Source of the DNA: Octopus vulgaris
Lineage: Eukaryota
Direction of reading: 5' to 3'
Length of the DNA stretch: 64,000 nucleotides
Assembly (NCBI GenBank): GCA_951406725.2
Contig: OX597829.1
Span: 57,288,001-57,352,000 of the forward strand
Below, piece by piece: positions 1,785 to 44,990 of the stretch. Each line of letters opens with the position of its first letter. Positions within the stretch are counted from its first letter, which is position 1. The translations under genes were made by a program, and so were the position numbers. The notes beneath the pieces were generated by a model that did no database searches, was not told where the DNA came from, and saw nothing but the letters and a program-made list of their open reading frames with translations.

Positions 1785-2120
1785 GGTATAGTTTGGCTCA
1801 GGTCTGGTCTTATTCCTGACAGGATTTATATGGGTAGCGGATTACTACCTGTAACCTTAGGTATCCACAAGTTTTCAGCTGTCTTTCAGATGCTTAGAAC
1901 TCTCCTGATAATCCTTGTTGTCCCTAAAAGACAAACTTTCTGTAGAAGCTCTACAGAACATTCTATTTCCATCTCCTTCAGCCATTTCTCTACATCTTTC
2001 CTTACTCTTCCCAACGCACCAATTCTTATAGGAACGACCTTTACTGTCCTCATGCTCAAAATTCTTCTTATTTAAAATTTTAAGGAATTGTATCTTTTTT
2101 GTTTTTCGTCCTCTTTTCGA
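1785..2120 (-). mobile_element. R4/Dong 3'-end fragment (family G): RLE C-terminus + 3' UTR
   Basis: Minus-strand translation VKVVPIRIGALG...LLQKVCLLGTTRIIRRVLS; flanked by microsatellites. Confidence 0.8.
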
Positions 2121-2121
2121 A

Positions 2122-3406
2122 AATTATTATTATTATTATTACTATTATTATTATTACTATTACTATTATTACTATTACTATTATTATTATTATTATTATT
2201 ATTATTATTATTATCATTATTATTATTATTATTATTATTATTATTATTATTATTATTATTATTATTATTATTATTATTATTATTATTATTATTATTATTA
2301 TTATTATTATTATTATTATTATTATTATTATTATTATTATTATTATTATTACTATTACTATTATTATTATTATTATTATTAATTATTATTATTATTATTA
2401 TTATTATTATTATTATTATTACTATTACTATTATTATTATTATTATTATTAATTATTATTATTATTATTATTATTATTATTATTACTATTACTATTATTA
2501 TTATTATTATTATTAATTATTATTATTATTATTATTATTATTATTATTATTACTATTACTATTATTATTATTATTATTAATTATTATTATTATTATTACT
2601 ATTATTATTATTATTATTATTATTATTATTATTATTATTATTATTATTATTACTATTACTATTATTATTATTATTATTATTAATTATTATTATTATTATT
2701 ATTATTATTGTTATTATTATTATTATTAATATTATTATTATTATTATTAGTATCATTATTACTATTATTATTATTATTATTATTATTATTATTATTATTA
2801 TTATTACTATTATTATTATTATTATTATTATTATTAATTATTATTATTATTATTATTATTATTATTATTGTTATTATTATTATTAATATTATTATTATTA
2901 TTATTATTAGTATCATTATTACTATTATTATTATTATTATTATTATTATTATTATTATTATTACTATTACTATTATTATTATTATTATTAATTATTATTA
3001 TTATTATTATTATTGTTATTATTATTATTATTAATATTATTATTATTATTATTATTAGTATCATTATTACTATTACTCTTATTATTATTATTATTATTAT
3101 TATTATTATTATTATTATTATTCTTACTATTACTATTATTATTATTATTATTATTAATTATTATTATTATTATTATTATTATTGTTATTATTATTATTAT
3201 TAATATTATTATTATTATTATTATTAGTATCATTATTATTATTATTATTATTATTATTATTATTATTATTATTATTGTTATTATTATTATTATTAATATT
3301 ATTATTATTATTATTATTATTATTAGTATCATTATTACTATTATTATTATTATTATTATTATTATTATTATTATTATTATTATTATTATTATTATTATTA
3401 TTATTC
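2122..3406. repeat. ~1.3-kb (TTA)n microsatellite with higher-order units
   Basis: Direct reading; interruptions GTT, TTAAT and AGTATC recur in the same order about every 150 bp. Confidence 0.95.
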
Positions 3407-4845
3407 AGTAGTTTTATTTTTATAGCGTGCTTTCACTTCACTACCGAGCGCAGCTCTGTGTGCCTTGGGTATGTGCTGTGATTTGTTGTGATGCTTTGAT
3501 GGTTATTGTATGGAAAGTGTTCTGCGTAGGATGTGCGCAGTGCCTAGTAGTGCAATTTTCCGTATGTTATATGTGTTTGTAAGTCCTGGTGTTTTTGTTA
3601 TGTATTTGTCTGAATATTTTTTTATCATGCCTAATGCACCTACTATGATAGGAATTGTTTCTGTTTTCAGGTTCCACATTCTAGTTACCTCTATTTCCAG
3701 GTCTTTGTATTTTGAGTTTCTCCATTTCTTTTAGAGACACGTTGTCATCTGCCGGTATTGATACATCAATTAGAAAGCATTTTTTTCCTTCATGATCTCT
3801 GACAACTATATCTGGTCTGTTGGCCTTAATTTCTCTATCTGTGTGTATCGGCATATCCCAGAGTATGGTTGCTTTCTCGTTTTCTGTGACCTTTTCTGGT
3901 GTGTGCCTATACCATCTTTTTTCTGTTGTTATTCCATAATGTTGGCATAGCTTCCAATGTATGTAGGTTCCAACTCTGTCATGTCTGTGAATATATTCCT
4001 TCTTAGCCAGGACTGGGCAGCTAGAGATAATATGATTTATTGTTTCTTGTCCATCTCCACATATTCTGCGGTTACTTGTCATATTTCTTTTCATTACATC
4101 ATCATCGTCATCATCATCGTCGTTTAACGTCCGTTCTCCATGCTAGCATGGGTTGGACGGTTCGACCGGGGTTCTGGGAAGCCAGAAGGCTGCACCAGGC
4201 TCCAGTCTAATCTGGCAATGTTTCTACAGCTGGATGCCCTTCCTAACGCCAACCACTCCGTGAGTGTAGTGGGTGCTTTTTACGTGCCACCTGCACAGGT
4301 GCCAGGCGGGGCTGGCAACAATTTCTGGTGGGGAGGCTTTGGTCTTGTGCTACAATTAAAAATCCCTCTGTTTCTGCTTTGAGTCCTGAGCTTCTCAACC
4401 ATTGCTGGGATTTTTCTTTGTCTATTTCTTTTGCGTTTAGTTTAGTCCAGTATTTACCATGAAGGGGCTTTTCTTGCCATCGTTTTATCATGGCTCGTTG
4501 CTGTTCTATTTTTAGTTTGGATTTCATTTGTTTTATAGCTTTTGTTGTTTCTTCATCATCTTCTTCTTCTTCTTTGTGTTTATTAGGTGGTATGATTTCT
4601 TGTTTGTATTTGTCAGCTTCCTTAAATACTGAGAACAGTTTTTTGTTTTGCTCGTGTTTTGCTGCTATCTGGATCAGTTTTCCTTCCTTCTGAAGTAGGT
4701 ATTTTTGCAGTCCTATGGTGGTTATTTTATAGTAGTTTTCCAGCAGTATAAGGCCTCTACCACCTTCTATACGTTGTATATATAGTCTTTCTATGTCAGA
4801 TTTTGGGTGATGCATCCTAGATCCTGTCAGTATTTTTCTTGTTAT
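3407..4845 (-). mobile_element. 5'-truncated R4/Dong copy (family A), interrupted by an RTE tail
   Basis: ORFs 4243-4815 (MHHPKSDIERLY...GGRGL) and 3681-4094 (CCHC knuckle region, NRPDIVV..LIDVS) are near-identical to 40267-42479; 3' UTR abuts (TAA)n. Confidence 0.92.
4099..4318 (-). mobile_element. RTE-type 3' tail / RTE-dependent short element inserted in Dong copy
   Basis: CTGGATGCCCTTCCTAACGCCAACC motif and (GAT)n tail; homologous to 15297-15540, which is contiguous with RTE coding relics. Confidence 0.7.
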
Positions 4846-5028
4846 TATTATATTATTATATTATTATATTATTATATTTATATTATTATATTTCTTCTTC
4901 TTCTTCTTCTCCTTCTTCTTCTTCTTCTTCTTCTTCTTCTTCTTCTTCTTCTTCTTCTTCTTCTTCTTCTTCTTATTATTATTATTATTATTATTATTAT
5001 TATTATTATTATTATTATTATTATTATT

Positions 5029-42538: not shown

Positions 42539-43095
42539 ATGCCCTGATGCAGTACCAGGCAATGGCTGTCATGGCTTCTGATCTTAACTGATTGGAAGTG
42601 TTATCATGTACGTCGTTTTGTCTTGGTATAAAAAGATGGGCTACAGCAAATATTCTGCTCAATACCACAGATTTGCTTGTCAGTTGTTTGACCTTAACCA
42701 GTTGAGCATGTCCCTTAGTGGCTGACGATATGTGCATCTCTGATCACGAGCAGAAGTAGTGGGGGAGCATCATAGCCATGTGTTGAGAGGGATTCTTTGG
42801 GGTTTGAATAATTCACCTCTGGAAACATGGGTGGTTCTTTCAACATCCTTAAACAATCCTTATTCAGGGACCTTTTGAGCGGGATGGGCTACTCAACCTG
42901 AAGAAAATTCTAACTGGGCCCCACCTGCAAGGTCATGTGCTGTTTATCTTGATATGAGATGACCATGTCGTGCACATATGGTTGTGATGCATGTGCCTGG
43001 TGTACCTTTATCAGACGGGTAGTCATGATGGGTATATTGGGCTTCGTATATTTTACCCCAGTGTCACTTTGATGGCATGCACTGCTCTCTCACTC
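42539..43095 (+). mobile_element. Full-length copy of ~557-bp non-coding (TAA)n-targeting retroposon
   Basis: (AAT)n-ATGCCCTGATGCAGTACC ... CTGCTCTCTCACTC-(AAT)n. Confidence 0.88.
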
Positions 43096-43114
43096 AATAA
43101 TAATAATAATAATA

Positions 43115-43714
43115 ACTGCCGACAAGTGGTATAATCACCACCCTGAGGCTGTAACTGAAGGAGAAAATGTAACCATTCTGTGGGACTTTCCAGTACATAC
43201 AGACCGAACCATCAAGGCCAATAAACCAGATATTGTTGTGAAAGACCAAAACAATAAAGTATGCTTATTGATCGACATGAGCATCCCCTGTGATCATAAT
43301 ATCTCAGCGAAAGAGTTTGACAAGCTCAGAAAATATAAAGACCTACTCATTGAAATTGAGAAAATGTGGCATCTCAAGGCGGTTACAATACCAGTGATCG
43401 TAGGAGCACTAGGAATGATCAAGAAGGGAACCGAAAATTATATGAGAATGATCCCTGGCTTACCATCCCTGCAAGAAGTGCAAAAGATTGTCTTAACTGG
43501 TACATCACACGTATTGAGAAGAGCATTGTCGATGTGAGAACTGTTGCTGCTCATGTATTTTAATTTAACTTTAAAAAAAAAAAAAAAAAAAAAATGAACG
43601 AACTACTGAGTTTGGTTTAATGGCCTACCAATATACACTATGAGTTTCTTTGCCCTAGGAGTCGGGAAGACACTCGGCAAGAAATGGAAGAAAATTTGAA
43701 AGAAGAAAAAAAGT
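43115..43714 (+). mobile_element. R4/Dong family C 3' fragment
   Basis: NKPDIVVKD..LLIDMSIP..KLRKY..IPVIVGALG; UTR ends at (TAA)n. Confidence 0.9.
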
Positions 43715-43740
43715 AATAATAATAATAATAATAATAATAA

Positions 43741-44990
43741 ATCCCAAATTCACTGAAACAGCTAACCCACAAAGTTACAGACCAAATTGTCTCCCTACAA
43801 TTTGTATCTGTTCATTTAGAGTCCAGTTAAGAATATTGTAGCTGTAACGTATAACTGGAACAGCTAGAGTGTTGATACCTACAAATTGTAGGGAGACAAT
43901 TTGTAAATTGTCTCCCTATAATTTACAAAGCCTTTACTGCAAGAATATTGCAAAGAATGAGCAAATATCTAGAAGAAAGCAACTTGTTTCCAGTAGTGCA
44001 GAAGGGATGCTGCCAGGGCTCATACGGCTGTAGAGATCAGCTACTGATCAATGAAGCAATAACTGAAGACAGCCGCAGAAAGAAGAAGAGTCTAAGTATG
44101 GCCTGGATTAATTATCGAATGGTTTTTGATAGTATTCTCCATATATGCATCCTAGAAACACTAGCCATGAACAAGGCACCAATAATCATAAAATATATAA
44201 CACATTCTATGAATAAATGGCAGACAGTGCTACAGCTCCAAACAAAAGAGGGACTCATAAATACGAAAGCCATCCCCATCAGAAGAGGAATATTCCAGGG
44301 AGACATGCTCTTTCCACTCCTTTTCTGCTTGGCACTGACATCTTTGACACGCTAAACAGAACTGGATGCGGATACAAAACGGATGCAAAACGATCAACCA
44401 TCTGTTGTATAAAACTGTACGCTGCAAATGATAAACAGCTGGAAAAATTACTACAAAGAGTCCATGGACTTATCAAGGAAATAAACATGAAATTTGGCCT
44501 AGAAAAAGCAACACTGTAAAGAGGAAAACAAGTTAAGAGTAGCAACATCACAATAGATAAAGCAAATGTTATAAGAGTATTCGACCCAAGCCACTCATAC
44601 TAATACTTAGGAATCAATGAACTAGCTACGATACAACACACATAAATAAAAGAGAAAATAAAGAAAGAATACTACAGAGGAGTTAGAATAATACTGAAAA
44701 CAGAGCTCAATGCGAAAAACAAGATAATAGGAATCAACACTCTAGCTGTCCCAGTTCTACGTTACTGCTACAATATTCTTAACTGGACTCTAAACGAACT
44801 GATCAAAATAGACAGAAAAAAAACTAATGTCAAAATTTAAGATACACCTACCAAAATCAGTATTGCTTGGAACTACAAGAATTCTTTGCAGGGTTCTTGA
44901 AGCATGACCAGTAAACAAGAGTCACTTTAGTCTGCTGGCTGTAGACAGCTGTCACTTTCCATCATAAACCAGCAACATAAGCTGTAAGAT
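43741..44990 (+). mobile_element. Degraded family-A-related Dong RT fragment joined to a different 3' end (family H)
   Basis: ORF 43948-44355 (QKGCCQGSYGC, RRGIFQGD); jumps to VLLGTTRILCRVL + UTR near 44860. Confidence 0.8.

Follow-up and report, generated by a model that had tools for sequence, protein, structure and literature searches.

The 3' untranslated regions (UTRs) of Dong-like retrotransposons carry a conserved, covarying RNA structure on the sense strand. This conclusion is supported by our analysis of a 64,000-nucleotide stretch of Octopus vulgaris DNA (GenBank assembly GCA_951406725.2, contig OX597829.1, positions 57,288,001 to 57,352,000 of the forward strand; the window) and of related elements elsewhere. 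The structure, which we call H1, is a bulged hairpin about 40 nt before the (UAA)n tail of the element RNA, and probably serves as the handle by which the Dong protein selects or positions its template in target-primed reverse transcription. A preliminary description of the window had proposed one hairpin common to dissimilar families, and a covariance model built from the window only, together with controls at outside loci, bears this out. All ten hairpin sequences that it quoted are present at their positions and on their strands.

The window has a GC content of 36% and numerous (TAA)n runs. Searches with tblastn revealed nested, 5'-truncated fragments that belong to a single kind of element, and 17 of their 3' ends were examined; the nested copies are bounded by TAA runs, and the elements both insert into and end in (TAA)n, as in R4/Dong. 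Each of the ten quoted hairpins sits behind a Dong-like C-terminus or coding fragment. The longest open piece, from family B (Table 1), matches RVT_1 (E 3.7e-19) and has restriction-like endonuclease motifs at its C-terminal end. The elements have, like R4/Dong, a single open reading frame (ORF), with a reverse transcriptase (RT), a CCHC knuckle and a C-terminal restriction-like endonuclease. The passages on R4/Dong in two papers describe an RT, a restriction-like endonuclease and a (TAA)n target (PMC7998251, PMC3812793), and one of them a diverged N-terminal Myb/SANT-like domain that needs HHpred for detection, with no N-terminal zinc fingers (PMC7998251). The coding fragment at 63-704 of the window aligns with the N-terminal part of Dong homologues; Pfam found neither a Myb domain nor an N-terminal zinc finger in it or in ten long homologues. 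Named homologues come from shrimp, hydrozoan, corals, starfish, beetle and fishes. Protein identity among the window families is 23-64% (26 pairs among eight of the ten representatives; families H and I have no aligned protein). The domain order and the (TAA)n target support the identification of the carrier elements as Dong-like (R4 clade), and the name rests on these two features; the homologue searches returned no named Dong or R4 reference.

From its base, H1 consists of a lower stem, a C-G pair, a 3x1 internal loop (Y-N-A/U opposite Y, Y being a pyrimidine), a near-invariant G-Y pair, a 5-bp stem and a pentaloop with G at its third position. In the 42-element consensus, 39 have the C8-G30 pair, N10 is variable, A (36) or U (6) occupies position 11, and G12 pairs with Y28 in 41. 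Positions 9 and 29 form a Y.Y mismatch in 37 elements (C.C 21, U.C 9, U.U 6, C.U 1). The upper stem mostly opens with G-C, and the loop has G19 in 33 elements and G20 in 39. The internal loop had originally been drawn as NNAG opposite two nucleotides. A 3x1 loop is the better drawing, as the first pyrimidine is the partner of the G (G-C 26, G-U 15, A-U 1), and the AG taken as fixed is variable at position 11. The proposal that stems differ while pairing is kept holds in that the pairing covaries, but the core also keeps its primary sequence (C8 and G12 in 41 of 42 each, G30 in 40, and G20 as above). Since the pairing of G12 with either C or U is possible on the sense strand only, the G-U pairs point to sense RNA. 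On this strand-specific G-U pairing, a hairpin acting in DNA was rejected. Three known motifs were also rejected. Iron-responsive elements have a bulged C and a CAGWGH loop, and selenocysteine insertion sequences and kink-turns have tandem G.A pairs. In H1 the base before the upper stem is G, the loops vary, the 3' strand of the internal loop is a pyrimidine, and there is no Rfam match.

Within the window, a literal descriptor of the hairpin (P1 at least 6/8, P2 5/5) was loose: it gave 36 matches, only four of them within 120 nt of a tail and many in dinucleotide repeats, so outside data were needed. A covariance model made from the ten sequences gave 26 window matches, with 18 Dong 3' UTR sites ranked at the top, ten of which form the training set. 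Folding of single copies was uneven, with z scores from -0.5 (H) to -3.5 (A, E2), and the full H1 structure is not the minimum free energy (MFE) fold in families G and H.

Outside loci were collected by a search with an alignment of the Dong C-terminus, which yielded 7 loci in genome_contigs and, in metagenome_contigs, 423 of which the best 80 were taken; locus searches with single proteins returned none, and an exact motif-plus-tail pattern had no match in genome_contigs or viral_contigs. Among 89 loci (numbered with the prefix L), 82 had the C-terminus and 75, in 41 clusters, had at least 60 nt behind it. One of them, L062, ends in (TA)n and, over the region searched, shares 85% identity with a tilapia protein. 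Loci L003-L009 and L090-L110 are Dong-like retrotransposons in contigs labelled bacterial or viral, probably through animal contamination of the assemblies.

These outside 3' UTRs contain H1 well above chance. The literal descriptor matched 24 of the 75 loci (14 of 41 clusters), against 1/75 reverse complements, 0/75 upstream coding sequences and a mean of 0.4 (maximum 3) in 100 dinucleotide shuffles. A looser one matched 30 of 75, against 13 on the reverse strand, 2 in upstream coding sequence and a mean of 3.5 (maximum 8) in shuffles. The refined descriptor matched 29 of 75 on the sense strand and none of 75 on the antisense strand; it had three matches outside UTRs in 680,354 nt of loci, which indicates that the motif is no common feature of the flanking host DNA. 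Run on 87 whole loci (202,773 nt), the window-only covariance model found 35 sites, 32 of them in Dong 3' UTRs, including 31 of 31 at E<=0.5; its sole low-E minus-strand site is another Dong 3' end. With 31 of 87 loci found, its sensitivity is modest. In a sequence-anchored test, one site per cluster was chosen from unpaired and boundary positions only, with pairing left unused. Across the 41 clusters, 76% of upper-stem cells were paired, compared with 36% (maximum 44%) in 100 shuffles.

The preliminary description had named significant covariation as one test of its proposal. A register of 37 columns was set up for 44 elements, ten from the window and 34 from 33 of the 41 outside clusters, together with a protein tree of 42 elements (H and I being without an aligned protein). 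In a tree-aware G-test with 400 simulations of independent columns, eight of 666 column pairs were significant. All eight are predicted base pairs, four in the upper and four in the lower stem, and six pairs remained significant with the 34 outside elements alone. In the model alignment, which is a fitted one, the pair counts come to 82% paired, compared with 33.6-41.6% after sliding. A reading without any selected structure, in which shared ancestry with pattern-picking or a DNA-level inverted repeat produced the resemblance, would account for the 36 literal matches and the poor folding of some copies. It fails every control: held-out, shuffle, reverse-strand, sequence-anchored and tree-aware. 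The G-U wobbles are strand-specific, and we consider this reading extremely unlikely.

The location of H1 shortly before the (TAA)n tail was confirmed for nine of the ten quoted hairpins (30-69 nt); the family H copy runs into a 560-nt repeat at ~44992 and has no tail directly behind it. In a set of 33 elements, where L053 (43 nt to the tail) stands for its twin L055, the distance from H1 to the tail is 28-66 nt (standard deviation 8.5), whereas that from the stop codon to H1 is -8 to 196 nt (standard deviation 41.3; Levene p=0.005), with further cases at -20 and +301 nt. By its smaller spread, H1 is tied to the tail and not to the stop codon. H1 could instead act in translation, by termination, readthrough or a ribosomal pause that hands the new protein to its RNA. 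Such a role would suit the elements whose bulge contains the stop codon (family E, L053, L063, L064 and L082) or whose H1 overlaps the last codons (L052, L062 and L070). The variable stop distance, from -20 to +301 nt, rules it out as the main function, a related fold is found in a repeat without an ORF, and we regard this explanation as very improbable.

A second hairpin, H2, absent from the preliminary description, lies downstream of H1 and has a stem opening with N-C-[C...G]-W-G. By a strict rule it is present in 14 of 44 elements (shuffles: mean 1.2, maximum 4) and by sequence anchors in 20 of 44. Of 60 inner cells in the latter set, 48 are paired; the highest count among 5000 partner shuffles was 46, in a comparison without tree correction. 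Its carriers fall within one large part of the tree and, in the other, at the base. An RGCA word stands behind H1 in 13 of 24 elements without H2 (shuffles: mean 3.5, maximum 9) and is perhaps an H2 remnant. In the 20 of 44 elements with H2, the linker between H1 and H2 is often A-rich. In many H2-bearing families the loop GG is complementary to a CC in the linker, which raises the question of whether the working unit is larger, the NGG of the H1 loop and the CC before H2 forming a pseudoknot as in vertebrate R2, with H1 alone a mere scaffold. Avian and turtle R2 use a pseudoknot-hinge-stem arrangement of this kind (PMC12180492). The Dong data speak against it: none of the five families in which G19 changes (L063, L068, L080, L082 and L087) shows a compensating change of the linker C, and the loop guanines persist in families without a CC linker. 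The loop-linker pseudoknot was therefore rejected, and a larger fold of this kind is quite unlikely.

H1 is best explained, by analogy with R2 and UnaL2, as a template-recognition signal, in view of its fixed distance to the tail and the conserved arginines of the NTE-1 helix. Among protein relatives whose structures are solved, R2 elements are the closest (E 1e-65 to 1e-37). A profile of 60 long Dong homologues aligns with R2Bm from residue 298, and by hidden Markov model (HMM) alignment only, Dong R218 (98% of the 60) falls on R2Bm R307 and R222 (82%) on R311, so that the profile has the RNA-binding NTE-1 arginines of R2 systems that read a 3' UTR tag. In R2Bm (PMC10499050), R307 and R311 secure G33 in P1 of the 3' UTR, and R307 reads G33 beside A32 and C126. 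The 43-nt 'R2 tag' of R2Bm, a P1-J1/2-P2 core, is like H1 in that its A32, G33-C125, C126 order resembles A11, G12-Y28, Y29, and its stem-linker-stem resembles H1-linker-H2 (PMC10499050). It differs in that P1 and P2 close long-range domains, whereas H1 is a compact local hairpin closed by its lower stem (PMC10499050). The targets also differ, 28S rDNA for R2 and (TAA)n for Dong. Avian and turtle R2 resemble Dong in that the RNA 3' end has two structured units with a hinge, which NTE-1 reads in R2, and in a shape kept despite sequence divergence; their pseudoknot is also read by zinc fingers (PMC12180492). In Dong, Pfam finds no zinc fingers in ten long proteins, and a pseudoknot has no support.

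H1 also resembles the stem-loop of UnaL2 and the L2 clade in having a bulge, a pyrimidine-mismatch hinge and a loop guanine near a 3' repeat. One study (PMC1636434) reports that UnaL2 needs a 36-nt stem with a GGAUA loop, a bulge and a U-U mismatch for mobility. Its stem-loop of ~36 nt has two stems, a bulge with a pyrimidine mismatch and a pentaloop with a key guanine, lies before a short-repeat tail, and is shared with partner short interspersed nuclear elements (SINEs) (PMC1636434). L2, in contrast, is a clade with an apurinic endonuclease (APE), has a one-base bulge where H1 has a bulge of two and a mismatch, and has a conserved tail totalling ~60 bp, whereas the distance from H1 to the repeat is ~40 nt, often with a second hairpin between (PMC1636434). 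The likeness is one of analogy; homology is not implied.

Because H1 is tied to the tail, lies on the sense strand and is accompanied by conserved NTE-1 arginines, we favor template selection, and a sequence of events can be proposed. A newly made Dong protein would bind H1 in cis. Its NTE-1 arginines would read the G-Y pair beside the A/U bulge, the loop guanines might provide a second contact, and the Y.Y mismatch could act as a hinge. The spacer, in many families with H2, would guide the (UAA)n end to the RT site for pairing with the microsatellite's nicked (TTA)n strand, and the RT would unwind H2 and then H1 while copying. Alternatively, a host protein might read H1 as a 3'-end processing, stability or export element that defines or protects the end of a transcript running into a microsatellite. 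The constant distance to the tail fits that equally well, and the retention of H1 across elements only 23% identical in protein would suit a slowly changing host factor. However, H1 matches no Rfam family, the motif is rare in flanking host DNA (the three matches above), and the comparable R2 and UnaL2 structures are read by the element's own protein, which makes a host reader unlikely.

The 560-nt repeat mentioned above may be a Dong-dependent SINE, which we offer as a lead. Seven aligned copies lie within TAA runs and have no ORF; three share one 5' end and four are 5'-truncated. Two runs contained 116,359 and 112,412 matching contigs, and the repeat is abundant in three runs. Its 3' part has a long stem with a GGGUA loop and a divergent H1-like hairpin at 43000-43037, with U-A in place of G-Y and one extra base. 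In 7/7 copies the sequence scores highest for H1 at this stem, 59-65 nt before the 3' end; model R1 gives 10 bits (E 5.3). There was no blastx match to the Dong proteins compared and no blastn match to the loci compared. A refined-descriptor match on the antisense strand of three copies has a poor lower stem and was taken as chance. Contigs with the repeat show joints repeating the first ~138 nt, and other sequences join at 42645 and 42811, which suggests related families with a common core. A broader, tentative proposal, which is possible but doubtful, is that H1 is a deeply conserved, portable 'Dong tag' of 40-80 nt. Its A-G/Y-Y corner would be the same NTE-1-read element as the base of R2 P1, one ancestral device shared by R2 and R4/Dong; RNAs would be cross-mobilised between Dong elements by their proteins, and a Dong-driven SINE with a divergent tag is what the 560-nt repeat would be.

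Several points weigh against the proposed role of H1 in template recognition. The 42-row alignment was picked partly by structure-aware matches and leaves out eight of 41 clusters, which inflates the covariation; with rows partly picked by structure, the sequence-anchored test is the less biased one. Five of the left-out clusters (L006, L071, L073, L076 and L079) carry H1 variants by eye, L013/L020 end too early, and L035 is ambiguous. In one cluster of the 41, L061/L075/L088, two other hairpins stand where H1 would be, indicating that Dong-like elements can move without it. In a second set of 21 new loci, model R2 matched no 3' UTR of four further families (L092; L093/L094/L106; L098; L110); of its three matches, one is a canonical H1 at the L099 end, where the element is not identifiable, and two are weak ones in coding sequence. 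Once the AG rule was dropped from the descriptor, L093 and L106 were recovered in this set (2/11 UTRs; shuffles 0), L098 fits H1 by eye and by fold, and L092 and L110 are ambiguous. Five distant loci, L100, L101, L102, L105 and L107, mostly without TAA tails, have no H1. H1 is therefore widespread in Dong-like elements but not universal. The 560-nt repeat scores weakly, 14.3 bits against a member median of 33.9, reached by 1/400 shuffles and with a one-base insertion allowed post hoc. The NTE-1 arginines could bind any RNA or DNA, and the key bases in R2 are single-stranded adenosines, whereas the 3' side of H1 is paired (PMC10499050). As a separate observation, L100-L107 hold a distant related element arranged in tandem; its 3' UTRs are long, mostly lack a TAA tail and have no H1.

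In line with the preliminary description, we found no account of a Dong 3' UTR structure in Rfam or the accessible literature; the search did not cover subscription papers (including the original Dong papers), Repbase notes, patents and supplements, so a prior description is possible. The R4/Dong passages of PMC7998251 and PMC3812793 contain nothing on it, nor do passages of PMC3747384, PMC13282606 and PMC8967140. Structured 3' ends of stringent long interspersed nuclear elements (LINEs) were already known; the H1 motif and its breadth appear to be new.

Table 1. Hairpins, coding fragments and repeats in the window (positions in the window, with strand)
Feature	Position	Strand	Remarks
H1, family A, 6-nt loop	42410..42447	+	more copies 15173-15210 +, 3438-3475 -, 5061-5098 -
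H1, family B	11482..11518	-	second copy 27919-27955 +
H1, family C	43647..43683	+	copies 22442-22478 +, 22759-22795 + (tandem duplicate), 26317-26353 + (compensated pairs)
H1, family D	32064..32100	+	second copy 40046-40082 +
H1, family E, overlaps stop codon	28916..28951	+	copy 24423-24458 +; copy near 10664-10689 - internally deleted
H1, family F	5664..5700	-	element internally deleted upstream
H1, family G	1831..1867	-	
H1, family H	44919..44955	+	tail lost at junction with 560-nt repeat
H1, family I	39331..39368	+	
Probable decayed H1, family J	6502..6539	-	~30 nt before CAA/TAA tail; by eye, missed by model, not the MFE fold
Probable decayed H1, family K	14068..14104	-	by eye; MFE fold agrees, z 0.12
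H2, family D	32112..32130	+	second copy 40094-40112 +
H2-like hairpin, family G	1797-1820	-	by eye
H2, family H	44968-44986	+	
H2-like hairpin, family I	39377-39401	+	
5'-truncated Dong ORF, family B, 620 aa open	11602..13464	-	RT (QGD, YMDD), CCHC knuckle, RHD, RPD..E and K..KY endonuclease motifs
5'-truncated, frameshifted Dong ORF, family A	40268..42379	+	
Dong endonuclease C-terminus, family C	43115..43537	+	
N-terminal part of Dong ORF	63..704	-	probability 96%, E 1.9e-9 against alignment A7 of homologues
560-nt non-coding repeat in (TAA)n, SINE-like	42539..43097	+	copies 1117-1690 -, 51348-51905 -
560-nt repeat, 5'-truncated copies	44992	+	also 13607-13898 -, 30110-30341 -, 11151-11280 -

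The window has other features. DNA at 705-1089 (-), upstream of the Dong N-terminal fragment, is possibly its 5' region and had no match in an Rfam scan; neither an Rfam family nor a tRNA was found in the window. Head-to-head TAA/TTA junctions, where insertions of opposite orientation meet, lie at 10956-11152, 14490-14628, 23122-23907 and 51959-52794. A 317-nt tandem duplication at 22201-22934 contains the family C 3' end and tail, with 99% identity. Directly behind the family J stop codon is a DNA transposon (6776-8019, -) with inverted ends at 7978-8019 and 6776-6816 and a broken transposase, presumably Tc1/mariner-like. An ORF fragment at 19312-19902 (+) resembles what we take to be an APE endonuclease from a different LINE clade. 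Inverted-repeat elements that are self-complementary and 170-195 nt long, similar to miniature inverted-repeat transposable elements, are found at 50695-50873, 55950-56115 and 60808-61001.

The 3' UTRs of R2 are so divergent that cryo-EM was needed to find their key bases. The Dong sister clade, by comparison, keeps a compact motif that is recognisable down to 23% protein identity. The near-invariant bases of H1 name the mutations to make, allowing a direct test of how a microsatellite-targeting retrotransposon chooses its template. H1 may further serve as a minimal tag in tools for RNA-templated insertion, and it offers a marker with which animal genomes can be searched for Dong 3' ends and for SINEs that depend on Dong.

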